Source: Geobacter metallireducens GS-15
GTDB lineage: Bacteria > Desulfobacterota > Desulfuromonadia > Geobacterales > Geobacteraceae
Assembly (NCBI RefSeq): GCF_000012925.1
Contig: NC_007517.1
Coordinates: 1,380,001 to 1,412,000 of the forward strand
Length of the DNA stretch: 32,000 bases
Direction: 5' to 3'
Shown here: positions 4,123-28,242 of the stretch, piece by piece
How positions within the stretch are numbered: position 1 is the stretch's first letter
Layout: every line of letters starts with the position of its first letter
Position numbers and translations under genes: made by a program
Notes under the pieces: generated by a model
Seen by the model: only the letters and a program-made list of their open reading frames with translations
Databases searched by the model: none
What the model was told of the DNA's origin: nothing

Positions 4123-4557
4123 TCACGGGCAGCAGCGCAGACACTTGGTCATCTCCAGCATATTCCCGCCGTTAATCTTCTCGTATTTCACCGTATCCAT
4201 CAGCTGCTTGATGATAAAAATCCCCCGGCCTCGGTCTTCAAGCTGGTCGAAGTCGGGCGGGGGGATGCTGTTGATGTTGAATCCCTGGCCATCGTCGAAG
4301 ACCCGGATGAGAAGGTCCTGGTCAGTGATATTAATGTAGACGTGGACCATCTTGTCAGGGTCGTTGGCGTTGGCGTGCTTGATGGCGTTTACCATCGCCT
4401 CCGTAAGGACAAGGTTGATATGGTAGGCCAGCATGTCCCGGTCGCCGTCGTAGCGGTCGAGTTCCTTGGCGATGTCTTCGCCGATCCTCCCGATGAGGCT
4501 CAGGTAACGGGTCTGGTTCGGCACCTTGATATCAACTTCGATCTCTTTCCTGTCCAT
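4123..4557 (-). CDS. Anti-sigma regulatory factor / serine protein kinase (RsbW/SpoIIAB-type HATPase)
   Basis: 144 aa. N-box EAMVNAIKHA, G1 box DDGQGF, G2-like GRGIFIIKQLMD. Lies directly downstream of a STAS gene. Confidence 0.85.
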   Translation of the reverse strand: MDRKEIEVDIKVPNQTRYLSLIGRIGEDIAKELDRYDGDRDMLAYHINLVLTEAMVNAIKHANANDPDKMVHVYINITDQDLLIRVFDDGQGFNINSIPPPDFDQLEDRGRGIFIIKQLMDTVKYEKINGGNMLEMTKCLRCCP

Positions 4558-4566
4558 CCCTCACCC

Positions 4567-20190: not shown

Positions 20191-20215
20191 AAAAGCCCGC
20201 TTCCGCGGGCTTTTT
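20191..20215. terminator. Bidirectional intrinsic terminator shared by convergent genes
   Basis: A4-GCCCGC-TTCC-GCGGGC-T5 (stem 20195-20200 / 20205-20210). It serves the carbonic anhydrase gene (+) and touches the stop codon of the histidine kinase gene (-). Confidence 0.8.
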
Positions 20216-22179
20216 CAGTTCTGTAATACCTCTTTGATCTTTGCCAGGAGTTCGTCCGGTTTCACCGGTTTCGCTATGAAGTTGATCCCCTCGTCGAGGA
20301 CCCCTTTCCGGCTGATGATGTCCTGGGTGTAGCCGCTGATGAAGAGCGCCTTCATCTCCGGCCGGATGTTCCGGATCTCTTCATAGACGGACTGGCCGTT
20401 CCTTTTGGGCATAACCACATCGAGAAGCAGAAGGTCTATCCGGGTGCTGTTCTCCATGAACCGCCGGACAGCCTCGGCACCGTCGCTCGCTTCGATGACG
20501 GTGTAGCCGTTGCGTTCAAGAACGAGCTTCGAGAGCTTGCGCACGTCCCGGTCGTCTTCGGCTATCAGGATGGTCTCCTGGTTCCCCTGGGCGGCCGCCG
20601 TTGCGTCGCGGTGCTCCGTGGTCTCCTTTGGCGCCACGATGGGAAGGTAAATTCTGACGGCAGTTCCTTTCCCTATCTCTGAATCAACGGTGATGAATCC
20701 CTCGTGCTGCTTGACGATGCCGTAGACCATGGAGAGGCCGAGCCCTGTTCCCTTGCCGACCTCCTTGGTGGTGAAGAAGGGGTCGAAGATGCGTTCCTGT
20801 GTTTCGCAGTCCATGCCGGTGCCCGAATCTGCAATGGTCAGAATTGCGTAGTAGCCGGTTTTTCCCTTTTCAAGGGGACCGAAGAAATCTTCTTCCAGGA
20901 AGTCGCTCCCCGTCGTAACAGTAAGCGTGCCGCCGTCCGGCATGGCGTCGCGGGCGTTTGTCACGAGATTCATCAGGATCTGGTCGATTTGCCCCGCATC
21001 CACATGGCACACGAGGGGTTCGCTGGAGAGCGAGGTTACAAAGGTGATATCCTCGCTCACCAGTCGATGGAGAAGTTTCTCTATACCCTTCACAATGTCA
21101 TTCAGATTCGTCGGGTGAGGAGAGATTACCTGCTTCCTGCCGAAGGCGAGGAGCCGTTTGACGAGGTTGGTGGCCCGGTCAGCGGCTGAGAGAATCTGTT
21201 CCACGTAAATGCGATAGGGGTTGTCAGTCTTGAGGCTGCGCTGCAGAAGCGTTCCGAAGCCAACGATGGCAGTGAGTATGTTGTTGAAATCGTGGGCTAC
21301 CCCCCCGGCAAGTGTTCCGATAGCCTCCATCTTCTGGGCATGGCGGAGTTCCTCGGCCAGGAGTTCCTTCTCGGCCTCACGGGTTTTCAGTGTAGTGCCC
21401 AGGTGGTTGAACGCCGTGGCGAGCCGGCCGATCTCATCCTTCGATTCCACGGGGACAGGCTCGAATGAACCAGAACTTTCGAGAACCCTGATCCCTTCGG
21501 TGAGTCGGTCGAGGGGGCGCGTAATTCTACGGGTTATGACGTAGGTGAAGAAGGTGCCGAGGAGGAGAAAGCCCGCTGCCATGAGGACGCTTGTGTAGAG
21601 GAGCGTGTCGAGTTTTTTCCCGAGAAGGCTCTTGTCGACGATGATTCGCGCATAACCGATAACGCGGGGCGTTGGCCGTGGGGGTTGGTCGAGGAACAAT
21701 GATCCGTCCGTGGGGAAGGATGAACTCGACAGTACTGGTGCCCAGAACTCGAAGATGTCATCTCCCTCGAAGACCGAGGGCTCGGTTGTCCCTTTCAGCC
21801 GTTCGAAGCGGGTGCTCCAATGGGGAAAGGCCCGGCCGGAATTGTTGATAACACTCTTGTGTGCCTGTTCCTGGAGTGCTTTACCTTCTGCCGTCACGAT
21901 GGTGACAAAAAGGACTCCTTCGTGTTCCAGAATACCCTGGATGGGGTCCCGCAGAAGTTCTGCATTTTCGGCAAAAACACCGAGACGGGTATTGTGGGCC
22001 AGGAGTCTCGCCAGGAGTTTCCCCTCGTTGACCAGACTATCCCTCAGGGCGCTTCGCTGTTGCTGGAAGAAGAAAACCGTAAACGAAATCGAAATTACCG
22101 CGATAAAGAGTGTGAACAGGAGGAAGAACCTCAGTCCCACGCTGTCACGACGGTTTTTCAGCTCGTCGAAAAAATCCAT
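20215..22179 (-). CDS. Hybrid sensor histidine kinase / response regulator
   Basis: 654 aa. Two TM helices flank a periplasmic region. HAMP-like linker, HisKA H-box [11 protein letters not shown], HATPase (DSGTGMD, GTGLGLS), and a C-terminal receiver ([10 protein letters not shown] ... [13 protein letters not shown] ... ISGY). Confidence 0.9.
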
Positions 22180-22187
22180 TCTTTCCC

Positions 22188-23198
22188 CTAGCGTATGACT
22201 TTGGCTCGACTTAAAGCCTCTTCGTTCAAGGAGAGGCCAAGTTTGCGCGCTATCCTGCTGTTTATCGTGATGACCGCGCCATGGGGTTCGCTGCGCGGGA
22301 TGCTTTCAGGAGAGGTTCCCGACTGTATCTTTCTGACCATTTCGCCGGCCTGCCGCCCCACCTCGTACGGATCAACATCGAGCGCCATGAGTGCTCCCAT
22401 CTGAACATACTTATCCGAAAACGTGATGATGGGAATCCTGTTGTTCAGGGAGAAGAGCAGGAGGTACTCGATCGCTTCCGGTGTCAAAAGCGTGGCATCG
22501 GGAAGCATGAGGAATGCCTCGATGTCGCCTTTCATCCCTTCGACAAGATTCAGGACATCGCGTGACGAGCGGACTTCCCGCGCCACGAGGTCTATGCCGA
22601 GAGAGCGGGCCGTTGCCTGCGATTTACGGAAAAGGGCTCCGCTTCGCGCCGGGTTGTACAGGGTCCCCACACGCTTGAGCCGCGGCATTACCTTCTGTGC
22701 TGAAACTAATTGCCGCTCCGGCGCCACGTGCATGCCGATGCCGGTGATGTTTGATCCAGTAGTGAGGGAGTTATGCTGGTCGAAGACCATAAGGTAGACG
22801 ATGGGAGTGTCCTTGATTCTCTTTACCCTGTTCATGGCCTCCGTGCCGATGGCCACAATCACATCGGGCCGTTCATCCCGAACCGCTTTTGCCACATCGA
22901 GACCGTCGAGATCAGACAGGACCAGTTTCCTGAAGTTCCCGGCCACGACGCTTCGCACCCCCTTCGCCGCTTCCTCATAGGGGGCGACCCTGAGGCTTTG
23001 CAGGACGAGCACCTTCTGGGCCGCCTGACTTGTTCCGCCAAGGAGCACCAGAGTGAACGCAAACACGAACGTGACAAGCCTCATGAAGAGGATGGCTCTG
23101 TTCACGTCGCTTGCGCCCAGGAATGGCGGGATCGTGTGATCTTTGCCGAAAGCCCTGGTGCTCTGGATCGAACTATGGTCTTGTCGACGATTTGACAT
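22188..23198 (-). CDS. Periplasmic ABC-substrate-binding-like protein (PF04392-type), probable sensor partner of the adjacent kinase
   Basis: The mature part begins KVLVLQSLRVAPYEEA..., typical of ABC_sub_bind proteins. The start is uncertain: ATG 23198, TTG 23219, or ATG 23084, which would place the signal peptide MRLVTFVFAFTLVLLGGTSQA at the N-terminus. Ends 8 nt before the kinase start. Confidence 0.8.
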   Translation of the reverse strand: MSNRRQDHSSIQSTRAFGKDHTIPPFLGASDVNRAILFMRLVTFVFAFTLVLLGGTSQAAQKVLVLQSLRVAPYEEAAKGVRSVVAGNFRKLVLSDLDGLDVAKAVRDERPDVIVAIGTEAMNRVKRIKDTPIVYLMVFDQHNSLTTGSNITGIGMHVAPERQLVSAQKVMPRLKRVGTLYNPARSGALFRKSQATARSLGIDLVAREVRSSRDVLNLVEGMKGDIEAFLMLPDATLLTPEAIEYLLLFSLNNRIPIITFSDKYVQMGALMALDVDPYEVGRQAGEMVRKIQSGTSPESIPRSEPHGAVITINSRIARKLGLSLNEEALSRAKVIR

Positions 23199-23628
23199 GT
23201 TGGAGGTAATGGTTGCCAATTTTTTGTTTGTCTAAGTCGTTAATTTGAATTGCTTTATAGGCTGGCAATAGTAATTAAGCCCTTGAATGTCCATAAAAAA
23301 CAGGATGTTTGCCGGTGTGCTCCTGATGGGAGCGTACGGTAAAGATAGGGAGTTGTGCGATTTTAATGCCATTTTGGTAATGATACCGAAGAGTTGATTA
23401 TTCGAGAGAGAAATTTCTCTTGCCGGGTAACCCGGAGGAGATTCAATGGTGCTGATTTTTCGATGTATTTAAGGGTGGAAGGGATATTGTTTCTAACATC
23501 TGTGGGATTTGAAAGGTTTGAAAGGAGCTCTTTTTGCATGATCCGGTTTCTTGAAAATGCATTAATGGTTGCAGCATCGTGACAGCGAATAACACTATCG
23601 GGAACTTCTGTAGGGTTGGGGGAGATGG

Positions 23629-25539
23629 ATGTCGTTTCAGGATAAAGCGATCAAGAAACGGATTTCTGTGGCCACGATAGCCTGTGCAGGGGCTGTGCTG
23701 TGGCTCCATGGCTCGGTTGTCCCGGCCTGGGCCGAAAACGACGAGATGAAGGTCCTTGAGATGTTTTACGAGGACAAAGAACTTGTGGTCACTCCCACGC
23801 GGGATCCGAAGCCCATCTCCCAGGTGGCGGAAAACGTCACCGTCATCACCGCCAAGGAGATTCAGGCCCTCAATGCCCACACCCTGGGAGAGGTTCTCAA
23901 TACCATACCGGGGGTCCATGTGGAGCCCCGCGTGACGCCGGGAGGGTTATCCCCCACACTTTCCATCCAGGGGTCCGAGAGCAACCATGTCCGGGTGATC
24001 ATGGATGGAGTGACCATCAACAACGTTTCCGACTTCCTGGCGGATGTGGGGGCCATCCCTGTACAGCGGATCGCGGCGGTGGAGATAATCAAAGGGCCGG
24101 CGTCCTCGGCATGGGGTTCTTCACTGGGGGGGATCATCAACATCATCACCAAGTCTCCGGACGAGGGACGGAAACTGGGCGGAACGGTCTCGGCCTCCAT
24201 GGGTGAGCGTACCACCGGCGACTTCCGCCTGGAACTCTCTGGCACCCGTTCTTCTCTTGGATATTACCTGGCTGCCGACGGCATAACCTCCGACGGTCTC
24301 CTTCCCCATACGGGCGTGGACAGCGGCAGCGTATACGGCAAGATGACATGGGACCCCCAGGAGGATACCCGCGTGTTTGCCACGTATAGTTATTCCCGCG
24401 GGAAAAGGGGGTTGGGGGAGTTTCCCCAGTATGGATTGCGTCAGGAGGGGGACTATGAGCATTTGATAGCAACCCTCGGCATGAGCCATGCCTTGAGTGA
24501 AAGCCTTGATCTGGATATCGCGGGCCGCTTCTCGCACCGCGATTACAGTGACGTTTCCGGTGCCTTGGGCGCGGGAGAGGGATTGAACAACAACAGCTAT
24601 GAGCAGCCCAACCTCGGCGCAAGCGCCAAGCTCGCCTGGCGCACGGGCATTCACAGCGTGATAATTGGAACGGATTACGACAACGGTACCATAGACGCAG
24701 ATTTAAGGGAAAATGGCGGCACCGTTCGCACGAAGACCCATGGCCGCCTGGAGCGGCGGGCGATTTTCGCCAACGACACAATCGTCTGGAACAACTGGTC
24801 GATCACCCCGGGTCTGCGTTACGACTGGACCAGCACCAGCGATGATTTCTTCAGCCCGAGCCTAGGGGTGACATATAACCTGAGTGACCACACGGTCCTG
24901 CGGGCTTATGTGGCCCGGGGCTTTAACGTCCCTTCTTTGACCGCGACTACCGTCGGCGCGCAGGGATTGCAGCCTAACCCTCATCTGGAAATGGAGAAGG
25001 TCTGGTCCTATCAGCTTGGCTTCGAGACGACCTTTCTCAGGTATCTCTGGCTGAAGAATACGGTGTTCCGTCATGATGTCTCTGACTTCCTTGCTTATGA
25101 TGGTGCGACCAACAGTTATGTCAATCAGGGGAAGCAGCGTCGGCAGGGGGTAGAGGTGGAGGTGAAATCCATCCCCTTTTTCAACACCACCATCGGCGTC
25201 GGCTATACATTCATCGATGCCCGTGATCGGCTTGCCGATGAACGCGTGCCGAACATCCCTCGGCAAACGTGGGACGTATCCATAAATTATGACGACCGGA
25301 AACTCCTGCGGGGAGGGCTTGTTGGGCGCTATACCCAATGGAACGCCAGAGAGGATTTTAACAGCCGCGAAAACGCCATGATCTGGGACCTGACCGGAGG
25401 GGTCCGGTTTCTGACCGGGCAGGTATCCGGCGAGATATTCTTCGTTGCCCATAACCTTTTCAATGGTTCACAATATCTCCATTACTTCTTTAGGAATCCT
25501 GGTCGCTGGTTCGAGGGAGGGCTTCGCTTTAACTTTTGA
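23629..25539 (+). CDS. TonB-dependent outer-membrane receptor
   Basis: 636 aa. Signal peptide, then plug region (ELVVTPTRDPKPISQVAENVTVITAKEIQALNAHTLGEVLNTIPGV). Beta-barrel-like alternating pattern. Terminal aromatic residue (...GGLRFNF). Confidence 0.9.
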   Translation: MSFQDKAIKKRISVATIACAGAVLWLHGSVVPAWAENDEMKVLEMFYEDKELVVTPTRDPKPISQVAENVTVITAKEIQALNAHTLGEVLNTIPGVHVEPRVTPGGLSPTLSIQGSESNHVRVIMDGVTINNVSDFLADVGAIPVQRIAAVEIIKGPASSAWGSSLGGIINIITKSPDEGRKLGGTVSASMGERTTGDFRLELSGTRSSLGYYLAADGITSDGLLPHTGVDSGSVYGKMTWDPQEDTRVFATYSYSRGKRGLGEFPQYGLRQEGDYEHLIATLGMSHALSESLDLDIAGRFSHRDYSDVSGALGAGEGLNNNSYEQPNLGASAKLAWRTGIHSVIIGTDYDNGTIDADLRENGGTVRTKTHGRLERRAIFANDTIVWNNWSITPGLRYDWTSTSDDFFSPSLGVTYNLSDHTVLRAYVARGFNVPSLTATTVGAQGLQPNPHLEMEKVWSYQLGFETTFLRYLWLKNTVFRHDVSDFLAYDGATNSYVNQGKQRRQGVEVEVKSIPFFNTTIGVGYTFIDARDRLADERVPNIPRQTWDVSINYDDRKLLRGGLVGRYTQWNAREDFNSRENAMIWDLTGGVRFLTGQVSGEIFFVAHNLFNGSQYLHYFFRNPGRWFEGGLRFNF

Positions 25540-25540
25540 G

Positions 25541-25610
25541 TTGACGAAATTCATAAATTGAATATTATTAATTTTTTTCTTCTTGATTACTTGTGTGCAG
25601 AAAGTAGAAT
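25541..25610 (+). promoter_or_regulatory. Two tandem sigma70-type promoter candidates upstream of the small peptide gene
   Basis: P1: TTGACG (25541-25546), 16 nt, TATTAT (25563-25568). P2: TTGATT (25583-25588), 16 nt, TAGAAT (25605-25610). Both lie in a strongly AT-rich 111-bp spacer. Confidence 0.4.
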
Positions 25611-25650
25611 GACGTTCTATCGGTAAATATCTCACAGGAGGGAGGTACGT

Positions 25651-25779
25651 ATGCAACAGGATGTTCAGAACGTGAAGAATGAAGTGACAGAAGAGGTTAT
25701 GGTGGTGTCGGAGGGGACAATCGGTTCCGGTCCTCAAATTGGTGTCTGCTTCGGCTCGTACTTCCTCATAAGAGGATGA
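25651..25779 (+). CDS. 42-aa candidate RiPP precursor peptide ('geopeptide'-like), not in the supplied ORF track
   Basis: SD AGGAGGGAGG ends 6 nt before the ATG. Encodes MQQDVQNVKNEVTEEVMVVSEGTIGSGPQIGVCFGSYFLIRG: an acidic leader-like half and a Gly-rich, aromatic C-terminal half with a single Cys. Lies immediately upstream of a radical SAM/SPASM enzyme with an RRE-like N-terminus. Confidence 0.6.
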   Translation: MQQDVQNVKNEVTEEVMVVSEGTIGSGPQIGVCFGSYFLIRG

Positions 25780-25800
25780 TAATCACCTGAAGCATGAAGG

Positions 25801-25828
25801 AAGGGGGAGCTATTCCCCCTTTTTTTTA
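25801..25828 (+). terminator. Intrinsic terminator/attenuator between the peptide gene and the maturase gene
   Basis: Stem GGGGGA (25803-25808) / TCCCCC (25814-25819), loop GCTAT, followed by T8. It would give a short abundant peptide transcript with read-through into the enzyme gene. Confidence 0.6.
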
Positions 25829-25885
25829 TGTGTCATGGTGATGGATCGCAATGCACTCCTTACTTTGGCGCCAGGGAGGGCCGCC

Positions 25886-27184
25886 ATGCACCTTTCCCGC
25901 TATCTGAAACGGTACTCCTGCCATGAGCGGCCGGGGCACCTGCTTCTCTTTTCCACCAGAACCGCTGCCATCGCCATCGTTCCCGAGAAGGTCATTGCCA
26001 ATATCGAACAGGGAGCCATCAGTCCGGCGACCGCTGAAACCCTCTCGCGTCTCGGGTTTCTTGTCCCCGATACCGAGGTCGAGGCGGAACAGGTACGTCA
26101 GTTGTTCACGACGATCAATGGGGAGCGCACCGTTGCCACCATCATCGCCGTTCTGAACATGGACTGCAACCTGGCCTGCACTTACTGCTTCGAGGGTGGG
26201 CTGAAGGGGAAGCGGTACATGGATCACGCAACGGCAGAACGACTGGTATCTTTTCTGGACCGCCATTACCTCGCCGAAGGCATTGCCCCCAATCTGGATT
26301 TTTACGGTGGTGAGCCCCTCTTGAGTCTGGATCTGATCCGTTCCATCACCACGAGGCTGAAAGAACGTGCTGCCGGACGTGGGCTTTCCTGTTCCTTCGG
26401 CATGGTCAGCAACGGTACGCTTTTGACCGGAGATGTGGCCTGCGAGTTGGCCTCGCTGGGCGTTACCGGGGTCCAGGTTACCCTTGACGGCACTCGCGAG
26501 AACCATGATCGATACAGACCCTTTGTCTCCGGAAAGGGAAGCTTTGATGTGATAGTGCGGAATCTGCTGGAAGCATGCGATCTGCTCGATATCAGCATCG
26601 TCTGCAACTACACCCAGGAGAATTACTGGGGATTCCCCTCCCTGCTCGATTATCTCCTTGAAGTAGGCCTGAAGCCCGAACGGATTGCTGCTGTCAATTT
26701 CGCCCCCATCTCCCGAATCGGCACAGGGGAGCTTCCCCCCGAGTTCAACGATAGCTGTGCCTCCCACAATATGCCGTGGGTTTACGAATCGCAGCTCTTT
26801 TTGCGTCAGGAGGCTCTGAAGCGGGGCTACTCAGTGGCGAAGCTCCGTCCGCCGCTCTGCATGGTGGAATTGGCCCGTGATCTCGTGGTTACCCACGAAG
26901 GGGAATTGTACAAGTGCCCGGCTTTCATGGGGCGGAAGGGGCTTGCGGTTGGTACGCTGGAAGCGGGCGTCACGGAGTACCGGGAATCTCACAATCTCGA
27001 TCTCTGGAATAACGAGGAATGTCTCGACTGTGAGTATCTCCCCTTCTGCTACGGTGGGTGCAGGCTTTCGCGGCTCGCGCAGACGGGGGAGATTAATGGG
27101 GTGGACTGCCGAAGGGACTACTACGAAGCATCCCTTGAGCGGTATGTCCGGCAAGAGATGGCCAACACGTCCCGTAAACGATAA
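25886..27184 (+). CDS. Radical SAM / SPASM-domain peptide maturase with N-terminal RRE (PqqD-like) domain
   Basis: Radical SAM cluster motif CNLACTYC (CX3CX2C). C-terminal SPASM Cys pattern (KCPAF ... CLDCEYLPFCYGGC ... DC). The N-terminal ~90 aa resemble peptide-recognition elements of sacti/ranthipeptide synthases. The ATG at 25886 is preceded by GGGAGGG at 5 nt. The track's ATG at 25835 lies right after the terminator T-run. Confidence 0.9.
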   Translation: MHLSRYLKRYSCHERPGHLLLFSTRTAAIAIVPEKVIANIEQGAISPATAETLSRLGFLVPDTEVEAEQVRQLFTTINGERTVATIIAVLNMDCNLACTYCFEGGLKGKRYMDHATAERLVSFLDRHYLAEGIAPNLDFYGGEPLLSLDLIRSITTRLKERAAGRGLSCSFGMVSNGTLLTGDVACELASLGVTGVQVTLDGTRENHDRYRPFVSGKGSFDVIVRNLLEACDLLDISIVCNYTQENYWGFPSLLDYLLEVGLKPERIAAVNFAPISRIGTGELPPEFNDSCASHNMPWVYESQLFLRQEALKRGYSVAKLRPPLCMVELARDLVVTHEGELYKCPAFMGRKGLAVGTLEAGVTEYRESHNLDLWNNEECLDCEYLPFCYGGCRLSRLAQTGEINGVDCRRDYYEASLERYVRQEMANTSRKR

Positions 27185-27235: not shown

Positions 27236-28186
27236 TTACGGCGCTGTCACCTGCACTACCGAGCTTGTTTCGCCATTGGGGTTAATCACCTGAATCCTCA
27301 GATCCTTATCCGTCGGATCGGCGGGATAGCGCTGGTAGACCAGTTTCGAGCAGTCCACAAAGGTCAGAAACTCCCGTTCCCCTGATGGCGGCGCACCCGC
27401 CCTGAGTCGTTTGCCGGCTCCCGCGTTCAGTCCCACCTGCAGACTGTTTTCCTCCACTACTATTGTTGTTCCTGGCTGGAAATTCTTCCCTTCGATAACC
27501 AGCTTGTAATAGGTGACCGCTGCGTCGCTCCTTGTAACGCTGTAAATTTCCGGGGTTGCCACGATGGTAAGAGTCATGGGGGTGGTGAAGGTGTCGTCAG
27601 GATTTTTGACCTGGACCTGATGGAGTCCTCCAGGGGCCTGGGGGACAGTGAAGGTGAGAGATTGCTCCGAACCGAAGCTGCTCTTCACCACCGACCCATC
27701 GAAAAGCACTTGGCTTGCTGGCTGGAAATTGCGGCCGGTGATGGATAGGACACGCTCGCCCGCAGAGGAACAGACGCTGATAGTGTCGGGAGAAATGGAT
27801 TCGACAAAGGGTTTCGGTGCCTGGATCGAGAAATTGTAGGTACGGCTCGTGGCGCCGTCGCGTTTGAGGAAAAGGGCGTAAAGTCCAGGAGGGAGTTTCG
27901 GTATGGTGAAGGTCAGCAGTTCCGGACCAACGACCGTGGTCGGCACTTCGATTGTGCCCAGAAATGCCGATGTCTTCGCGGTAAAGCCGGTTCCCGAAAG
28001 GGTAACGGTGATATTCGGCTCGCCCTGGGCCGGAATGATGCTCAGGATATTTGGAGCAGGGGCGGGGGCCGGTTTCTCTGCCACCGTTGAGCTTGTCTTC
28101 CTGGACTTGGTTTGGGGGGCGCCCTGGGCGGCCACCGCAGGCAACAGCGCCGCAAGCGCCACCAGTGCAGTTACACGTTGTTTCAT
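27236..28186 (-). CDS. Secreted protein with three IPT/TIG-like Ig-fold repeats
   Basis: ATG at 28186 after GGGAGG. Signal peptide MKQRVTALVALAALLPAVAAQGA. Three ~85-aa repeats of the pattern P.I.SI.P......V.L.G.GF.......F.G......V.....LTF.VP....G...V. Confidence 0.8.
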   Translation of the reverse strand: MKQRVTALVALAALLPAVAAQGAPQTKSRKTSSTVAEKPAPAPAPNILSIIPAQGEPNITVTLSGTGFTAKTSAFLGTIEVPTTVVGPELLTFTIPKLPPGLYALFLKRDGATSRTYNFSIQAPKPFVESISPDTISVCSSAGERVLSITGRNFQPASQVLFDGSVVKSSFGSEQSLTFTVPQAPGGLHQVQVKNPDDTFTTPMTLTIVATPEIYSVTRSDAAVTYYKLVIEGKNFQPGTTIVVEENSLQVGLNAGAGKRLRAGAPPSGEREFLTFVDCSKLVYQRYPADPTDKDLRIQVINPNGETSSVVQVTAP

Positions 28187-28242
28187 GGAGCCTCCCGTCC
28201 GAAGCGTACTTCGCACCAATTAAATCACCTGGTCGTGCGATG

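Follow-up and report, generated by a model that had tools for sequence, protein, structure and literature searches.

The window analysed in this work is a stretch of 32,000 nucleotides of Geobacter metallireducens GS-15 (contig NC_007517.1, positions 1,380,001 to 1,412,000 of the forward strand), and all coordinates given below are counted from its first letter. Positions 25,541 to 27,184 carry a cassette composed of a short open reading frame (ORF) and a radical S-adenosylmethionine (SAM) enzyme gene, which a first-pass annotation had described as an orphan system for a ribosomally synthesised and post-translationally modified peptide (RiPP). The short ORF, the putative precursor peptide gene, is located on the plus strand between the ATG at 25651 and the TGA at 25779 and encodes a peptide of 42 amino acids (MQQDVQNVKNEVTEEVMVVSEGTIGSGPQIGVCFGSYFLIRG), in which the leader MQQDVQNVKNEVTEEVMVVSEG precedes the core TIGSGPQIGVCFGSYFLIRG. 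As had been noted before, the peptide contains exactly one cysteine, C33, and the gene is preceded by a strong Shine-Dalgarno (SD) sequence, AGGAGGGAGG (25636..25645, plus strand), placed 5 nt 5' of the ATG. This SD sequence was retained in 7/7 close loci, a set that comprises the G. metallireducens locus itself, L001, L002 and L081 to L084. The ORF was found exactly where it had been predicted. It is not hidden, as it had been called, since RefSeq already lists it under the accession WP_004512123.1 as a 'hypothetical protein' that is 100% identical in the strains GS-15 and RCH3. Nevertheless, the gene seems to be absent from the original GenBank record of GS-15, because the proteins flanking it, ABB31481 and ABB31482, are numbered consecutively.

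The small ORF is a real gene under purifying selection. Eight close homologs of 42 amino acids were found, with identities between 74% and 100%, and the cysteine was retained by all eight. The pairwise analysis (Nei-Gojobori) of seven nucleotide sequences gave dN/dS values of 0.07-0.44 at dS between 0.2 and 1.2, with no frameshifts; loss of conservation, of synteny or of selection had been named in advance as the observation that would speak against the gene. Across the G. metallireducens peptide and nine relatives, the segments MQQDV and EVMVVSEG, the Cys-Phe-Gly triplet and the terminal Arg were invariant, Ile-Gly ahead of the cysteine was retained in 10/10 peptides, and the final Gly in 9/10. 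The search of the G. metallireducens precursor against Pfam gave no match.

The second gene of the cassette (25886..27184, plus strand) encodes a radical SAM/SPASM maturase of 432 amino acids, WP_004512122.1, which is named 'geopeptide radical SAM maturase' in RefSeq and is 100% identical in GS-15 and RCH3. The length of 433-449 amino acids and the start at 25835 proposed earlier had to be revised, as the ATG at 25886 corresponds to the invariant M1 of all homologs, agrees with the RefSeq start and is preceded by the SD sequence GGGAGGG. In the comparison with the NCBIfam model TIGR04280, 'geopeptide radical SAM maturase', the enzyme reached 690 bits, where 400 are required, and the alignment joined residues 18-444 (numbered in the 449-aa ORF) to positions 1-427 of the 428 in the model; the family name given in the first-pass annotation was thus the right one for the enzyme. 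A total of 1051 maturase homologs were retrieved at E<=1e-30. The CX3CX2C motif of radical SAM enzymes (26165..26188, plus strand; CNLACTYC with C94, C98 and C101) was invariant in 20 homologs, and PF04055 was matched. Likewise, the SPASM auxiliary-cluster domain (26858..27109, plus strand; TIGR04085, 54.3 bits versus a cutoff of 27) carries seven cysteines, C325, C344, C379-X2-C382-X5-C388-X3-C392 and C408, all of which were invariant in the same 20 homologs, while C291 was almost invariant.

Both of these domains had been recognised from the sequence, and the third domain proposed there, a RiPP recognition element (RRE)-like N-terminus, was recovered as a predicted fold only. It spans approximately residues 1-85 (25886..26140, plus strand), where three beta-strands are followed by helices. 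In the AlphaFold2 model, whose predicted local distance difference test (pLDDT) score is 81.6 overall and >90 at the N-terminus, the strands lie at residues 7-11, 18-23 and 29-33 and the helices at 34-41, 47-55 and 63-80, which corresponds to the beta3-alpha3 arrangement of an RRE. The top solved-structure match was the thioether-forming RiPP maturase CteB (5WHY/5WGG), both by profile (1e-30) and by Foldseek, and the Foldseek alignment was full-length, the N-terminal domain of CteB included. The anaerobic sulfatase maturase (anSME) was the second-best fold match, followed by SuiB, ChlB and SkfB, and PqqE was also strong. The next-best NCBIfam models were TIGR04463, CefB, PapB, QhpD, nif11, CcpM and SCIFF, all of them families of maturases of Cys-containing RiPPs and all below their own cutoffs. 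The curated models of thioether maturases were not passed (PapB 129.8/340, SCIFF 106.2/425 and RumMC 55.8/720 bits), nor was that of anSME, TIGR03942 (71.4 bits versus 349). A grouping with non-RiPP SPASM families, which had been considered as a possible objection, was consequently not observed.

The scan of the GTDB species representatives yielded at least 600 candidate stretches, of which at least 433 were confirmed by tblastn. Counts out of 80 given below refer to the best 80 of these confirmed stretches, and counts out of 73 to the compiled peptides or loci. The best 80 loci belong to Geobacteraceae, other Desulfuromonadales, Desulfobacterales and Syntrophaceae as well as to many Nitrospirota/Thermodesulfovibrionia, and the restriction of the pair to Geobacter assumed previously does not hold, as loci also occur in Nitrospirota, Desulfobacterales and Syntrophales. 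An ORF of 30-45 amino acids lies 5' of the maturase gene in nearly every locus, and a positional equivalent of the precursor was found in about 75/80. A hidden Markov model (HMM) of our own, built on 67 peptides with a CC motif, recovered precursors in almost all loci. The consensus of the precursors is (K/E-rich)-EEIVVLDEG-x8-13-CC-xGAFxPFR(G), and the core GPxxxCCxGAFxPFRG together with the leader EEIVVLDEG was observed in about 70 orthologous loci. The CC pair was present in 73/73 compiled peptides and was followed by 8-10 residues in 67/73; F or Y occupied position +4 in 37/73, and aromatic residues were also conserved at +7. Extra copies of the precursor gene were found in several loci: five near-identical tandem copies in L047 (2846-3613), two in L029 (3591-3921) and two in L038 (3408-3930), while L006 (5289-5522) and L010 (5366-5524) carry a second, different precursor 3' of the maturase gene. 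Such multiplication is a typical RiPP trait. An atypical precursor candidate was also seen in L050 (1350-1505), with a long Lys/Ala-rich leader of AKKK-type repeats and the end TTCCAGALMRI.

The place of the G. metallireducens peptide in this family was argued from cysteine register, synteny and a position weight matrix (PWM), because neither the curated precursor model TIGR04229 nor our own HMM recognises it. At the position of the CC pair the peptide has V32-C33, so that its sole cysteine aligns with the second C of the family. In this register the tail is nine residues long, and G-6, P-5, G+2, S+3, Y+4, R+8 and G+9 match the consensus. The leader motif of the family, hhVLDxG, lies 8-13 residues ahead of the cysteine; its candidate counterpart, VMVVSEG, is located 10 residues ahead of position -1, within the family spacing, but its HMM score is -1.4 bits. 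With the Cys-anchored, ungapped PWM the peptide scored -0.8 bits, compared with -28 +/- 10 for shuffled sequences, of which 69/20000 reached its score (p about 0.003); a bona fide CC member scored in the same way gave a similar value. Moreover, L028 shares both flanks with the G. metallireducens locus, including the TIG and LptF/G genes, and carries CCFGAY where G. metallireducens has VCFGSY. Other single-Cys forms were found within Geobacter sensu stricto in L039 and L080 (KYCMVPIF...) and in L085. In the last of these, which is of the G. sulfurreducens type, an uncalled single-Cys ORF of 33 amino acids, MKKSSRIAVLNAGSVKNPNQPGYICIIIFGRTV, with a terminator lies within 4211-4558 of the minus strand, where the genes of receptor and maturase are separated by an 'empty' gap of 349 bp. 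The comparison suggests that the single cysteine is a derived state of the CC motif, with Geobacter sensu stricto keeping only the second cysteine. Because the retained cysteine corresponds to the second C, this residue appears to be the one that the system cannot lose.

Between the two genes of the cassette lies an intrinsic terminator or attenuator (25803..25827, plus strand), which consists of GGGGG (25803-25807), CCCCC (25815-25819) and a run of eight T (25820-25827), as the first-pass annotation had described. Stem and T-run were retained across the seven close loci, with a variable loop. A terminator-like hairpin between precursor and maturase was found in 57/73 loci across phyla, versus 4/73 controls, the controls being equal-length segments inside the maturase gene, and the stem sequences vary from clade to clade. 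The earlier proposal of a precursor-terminator-maturase layout with attenuated read-through thus extends to the whole family, and a precursor mRNA made in abundance, from which a limited share of transcripts continues into the maturase gene, appears from these sequence comparisons to be its conserved design. The precursor transcript is not unusually structured (z = -1.05), and both the minimum free energy (MFE) fold and the centroid fold show the terminator only. The Rfam scan of the whole window gave nothing at gathering thresholds, neither a riboswitch nor a known small RNA.

Two promoter candidates had been proposed for the precursor gene, and both are present on the plus strand: a putative sigma70-like promoter at 25583..25610 (TTGATT-16-TAGAAT), found by consensus scan and conservation, and a less conserved sigma70-like candidate at 25541..25568 (TTGACG-16-TATTAT), found by consensus scan. 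Their number does not exceed chance, since four promoter-like sites were found in the 4.3-kb region versus 3.2 expected from shuffles. Support for the promoter at 25583..25610 is therefore drawn from conservation, as the -35 CTTGAT and the -10 TAGAAT/TAAAAT are kept in seven orthologous spacers that otherwise diverge. The -10 hexamer of this promoter is overlapped by the inverted repeat TAGAATGACGTTCTA (25605-25619), which is partly conserved in close loci and may be an operator. A near-invariant block, TTGGCGCCAGGGAGGGCCGCC (25865..25885, plus strand), precedes the maturase start and includes its SD sequence GGGAGGG; it is identical in the seven loci save one substitution each in two of them, while the remaining spacer varies. 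Taken through position 25888, the block measures 24 nt (TTGGCGCCAGGGAGGGCCGCCATG), and its GGCG and CGCC could pair around the SD sequence; a role of 25865-25888 as a translational control element is possible.

The description of the system as an orphan held in so far as the analysis of the 80 loci revealed no conserved protease or exporter; it failed in another respect, as three further genes form a conserved module with the cassette. Immediately 5' of it lies the gene of a TonB-dependent outer-membrane receptor of 636 amino acids with plug and barrel domains (23629..25539, plus strand). The receptor reached no curated NCBIfam subfamily, and its nearest models were families of siderophore and B12 receptors. 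Divergently transcribed from it is the gene of a periplasmic PF04392 (ABC_sub_bind) binding protein (22188..23219, minus strand; PF04392 123 bits), which is distantly TrpX-like (87.6 bits versus a cutoff of 390). An 8-nt gap, an operon arrangement, separates this gene from that of a hybrid sensor histidine kinase (20215..22179, minus strand), in which Pfam domains and predicted segments follow in the order transmembrane segment, loop of about 150 amino acids, transmembrane segment, HAMP, HisKA, HATPase and REC. According to tblastn, homologs of the receptor, the binding protein and the hybrid kinase occurred within 4 kb of the maturase gene in 75/80, 67/80 and 55/80 loci, respectively, and most loci missing a partner have incomplete flanks. 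The partner genes are arranged in no fewer than four ways that differ in order and orientation, and the receptor itself occurs in several orientations.

The association was also recovered in the reverse direction: homologs of the binding protein with identities of 64, 40, 36 and 33% all adjoin a radical SAM gene, and the receptor gene is adjacent too in 3/4 of them. In two metagenome-assembled genomes (MAGs) that carry two loci each (L003/L070 and L015/L016), every locus is accompanied by a receptor and a binding protein of its own, and the kinase was found in 3/4 flanks. The two-locus MAG with L004 and L041 contains a second receptor; the flank of L004 is incomplete and only the receptor was seen there. 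In all three MAGs the precursor cores differ between the two loci. The all-against-all clustering of ORFs from the 80 loci gave no conserved neighbour beyond these three, be it a protease, an exporter or a TonB/ExbBD protein, and the other large clusters consisted of antisense shadow ORFs.

Taken together, we assign a probability of about 0.7 to the reading that the locus represents the 'geopeptide' RiPP system in G. metallireducens; in its full form, the reading would make the product a ligand of the receptor/sensor module. Very probably, judging from the sequence evidence, the radical SAM enzyme modifies the small peptide. The sigma70-type promoter would give a short, strongly translated transcript for the 42-aa precursor; the majority of transcripts would end at the G5/C5-T8 terminator, and read-through would supply a smaller amount of maturase. 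The RRE-like domain would then bind the beta-strand motif of the leader, EEVMVVSEG (EEIVVLDEG in the family), and the radical SAM cluster together with two SPASM auxiliary clusters would act on the hydrophobic C-terminal core around Cys33. The expected outcome is an intramolecular thioether of the sactipeptide or ranthipeptide type (-2 Da) that joins Cys33 to one of the carbons of the tail FGSYFLIRG, perhaps one of the C-terminal residue. A thioether at Cys33 is the most likely single reaction, at roughly even odds, and it is favoured because the nearest relatives in sequence and structure act on Cys peptides, with CteB as the best match. Asp and Glu are missing from the core, which would leave a carbon of the backbone or of a side chain within FGSYFLIRG as the acceptor, and the C-terminal residue is a candidate because the distance from the cysteine to the C-terminus is tightly fixed. 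PapB joins Cys to carbons in alpha position to a carboxylate group, those of C-terminal residues included (PMC12373016).

The modified peptide would cross the outer membrane via the dedicated TonB-dependent receptor, and the periplasmic PF04392 protein would bind it and signal to the hybrid kinase, which would give a circuit resembling that of an autoinducer or a metallophore. PF04392 proteins of solved structure bind Trp, Tyr or Phe (PMC10443332), and conserved aromatic residues are present in the precursor core. That the modified peptide is the ligand of receptor, PF04392 protein and kinase is put forward tentatively, the chances being somewhat against it as a separate claim. More speculative, and rather doubtful at present, is the wider reading that geopeptides are a class of cross-linked peptide ligands, each with its own TonB gate and PF04392/kinase sensor, and that they constitute a RiPP signalling circuit, between cells or with the environment, in anaerobic diderms (Geobacter, Desulfobacterales, Thermodesulfovibrionia) in which paralogous sets act as separate channels.

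Several observations weigh against this reading. The enzyme of the pair named 'geopeptide' was recognised by its curated model and the peptide was not: TIGR04229 (cutoff 30 bits) left the G. metallireducens peptide unmatched even at E<=10, and on the HMM of 67 CC peptides it scored about 0 bits. TIGR04229 is a narrow model, since the clear CC-type peptide of L067 reaches 15 of the required 30 bits and five others are unreported. The homology of the G. metallireducens peptide to the CC family is thus suggested by position, synteny and a modest PWM test. The N-terminal 95 amino acids of the maturase gave no PqqD match in Pfam at E<=10, which leaves the RRE without sequence-profile support, and the core, lacking Asp and Glu, is devoid of the best-studied ranthipeptide acceptor type, CX3D/E. 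Exporters and leader proteases are not among the genes conserved in cis, and the reading offers no route by which the peptide would pass from the cytoplasm to the receptor. Moreover, a gene neighbourhood is no proof of a ligand-receptor relation, and the receptor/sensor module could instead regulate the cassette. Among the papers searched, none treated the chemistry or function of the geopeptide family, in agreement with the earlier statement that neither structure nor function of such a pair had been determined; the matches to 'geopeptide' were 'gageopeptide' lipopeptides of Bacillus and irrelevant.

The closest competitor retains the precursor-maturase pair and replaces the thioether by other chemistry: oxidation of the cysteine in the manner of formylglycine, C-C or cyclophane formation at the aromatic residues at +4 and +7, epimerisation or another C-H functionalisation. 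SPASM enzymes catalyse many types of reaction, strong structural matches were also obtained with anSME, SuiB, ChlB and PqqE, and the conserved aromatics and the missing acidic acceptor fit such a product; we regard it as a real, though clearly less probable, alternative. It is weakened by the cysteine being the sole universally retained residue of the core, by the closest families and the best structural match being maturases that form thioethers or act on Cys-rich peptides, and by the low score of the enzyme with the anSME model (71 bits versus 349). Less probable again is a thioether peptide that serves as a metallophore or bacteriocin, with the receptor as its uptake or immunity route and without a signalling circuit. 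TonB-dependent receptors classically import metallophores, the nearest models of this receptor are siderophore and B12 receptor families, and the ancestral CC pair could chelate metal. However, the binding protein has a histidine kinase as its partner rather than an ABC permease and ATPase in nearly all loci, one of the two thiols has been lost in Geobacter sensu stricto, the cross-link is expected to consume the cysteine, and no immunity or export genes are conserved in the 80 loci; an assignment to metallophores or bacteriocins is unlikely on this evidence.

The remaining two explanations separate the peptide from the enzyme. As the pairing of the two is deduced from their arrangement, the enzyme might mature the receptor, the binding protein or a distant target, similarly to anSME or QhpD, and the small ORF might be an unrelated micro-protein. 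This is very improbable in view of the RRE-like domain predicted in the enzyme, the conserved leader motif, the multi-copy precursors of some loci, and the order of peptide 5' of enzyme, which is kept in about 75/80 loci despite the rearrangement of the other genes. The order of short ORF, terminator and gene, with two adjacent Cys codons in most family members, would also suit a Cys-sensing leader-peptide attenuator of the radical SAM gene, in which the peptide itself is functionless. Such an attenuator was rejected, and we consider it the most far-fetched of the explanations: purifying selection covers the whole ORF, leader and tail motifs are conserved across phyla, and just one Cys codon is present in Geobacter sensu stricto. 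Furthermore, the stop codon lies 24 nt 5' of the stem, and the MFE fold, with its unremarkable z-score, shows neither antiterminator pairing nor an alternative fold.

Among known systems, the locus is nearest to the geopeptide system of NCBIfam, with which it shares a full-length maturase above the cutoff, a small precursor encoded directly 5' of it and a Geobacter host. It departs from that system in its precursor, which TIGR04229 does not match and which has VC in place of CC; the range found here (Nitrospirota, Desulfobacterales, Syntrophales) is broader than the name suggests, and the association with receptor, PF04392 protein and hybrid kinase does not appear in the curated description consulted. 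SCIFF/CteB, the ranthipeptide system of Clostridia, likewise combines RRE, radical SAM and SPASM domains with a precursor of about 45 amino acids encoded beside the maturase, has no protease or exporter in cis, and resembles the present system also in that the physiological role of neither is established. SCIFF differs in its six cysteines and Cys-Thr link, compared with one cysteine and a Thr-free tail here, and the present locus, found in a diderm host, is linked to an outer-membrane receptor; the SCIFF maturase model gave 106 bits versus 425. PapB and the freyrasin-type systems are among the nearest characterised sequence families (129.8 bits), and in PapB substrates the cysteine is the thioether donor. 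The score, however, is below the cutoff of 340, and the core described here is without CX3D/E repeats or any acidic residue.

The anSME enzymes share the SPASM fold, act on Cys and gave the second-best structural match; in contrast to the maturase they have no RRE, no sulfatase gene lies near the maturase gene, and their model was far from being reached. Methanobactin operons combine the gene cluster of a ribosomal peptide with a dedicated TonB-dependent receptor, MbnT, and a periplasmic binding protein. Methanobactins are matured by MbnBC and not by a radical SAM enzyme, and their loci encode export and uptake across the cytoplasmic membrane. Here, too, peptide genes are coupled to a TonB-dependent receptor and a binding protein, but the binding protein is joined by a histidine kinase and the maturase is a radical SAM enzyme.

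The enzyme family was already known and curated, and this maturase gene is named in RefSeq. What is new is the single-Cys precursor variant, which is missed by the curated model and in some genomes also by gene calling, together with the wide taxonomic range, the family-wide attenuator and the conserved receptor/sensor module. Species of Geobacter serve as models for metal-reducing and electroactive bacteria, and next to nothing has been explored of their peptide natural products. With a 42-aa one-Cys peptide and one enzyme, the locus offers a compact pair for the chemistry of a named RiPP family that extends to hundreds of species of anaerobes; the single-Cys form is its simplest substrate, as it leaves no more than one Cys-based cross-link to map. 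The module of receptor, binding protein and kinase leads to a concrete functional hypothesis, the uptake and sensing of the modified peptide, which, if true, would amount to a new kind of peptide signalling in Gram-negative anaerobes.

Other features of the region are confined to close relatives. The minus strand 3' of the maturase gene (27236-28219) encodes a secreted protein with IPT/TIG repeats ('choice-of-anchor Z' repeat, NF058597). This gene and LptF/LptG are conserved only within the synteny block of Geobacter sensu stricto, and the TIG-domain and LptF/G genes downstream were rejected as members of the module, being a matter of local synteny (5/80 loci). The receptor gene has a putative sigma54-type promoter of its own, the GG-N10-GC motif GGAGCTCTTTTTGCA (23524..23538, plus strand), located 105 nt 5' of the gene and kept in the seven close loci as well as in L028, L039 and L080. 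It was rejected as a family-wide feature, since it occurs in 9/65 loci and does not extend beyond the clade of Geobacter sensu stricto. About 150 nt 5' of this motif lies the palindromic block TGCCATTTTGGTAATGATA (23367-23385), which is unique in the window, was not seen outside the Geobacter sensu stricto clade and is kept in the seven close loci. In L088, the gene of a sigma54-dependent response regulator adjoins the maturase gene.

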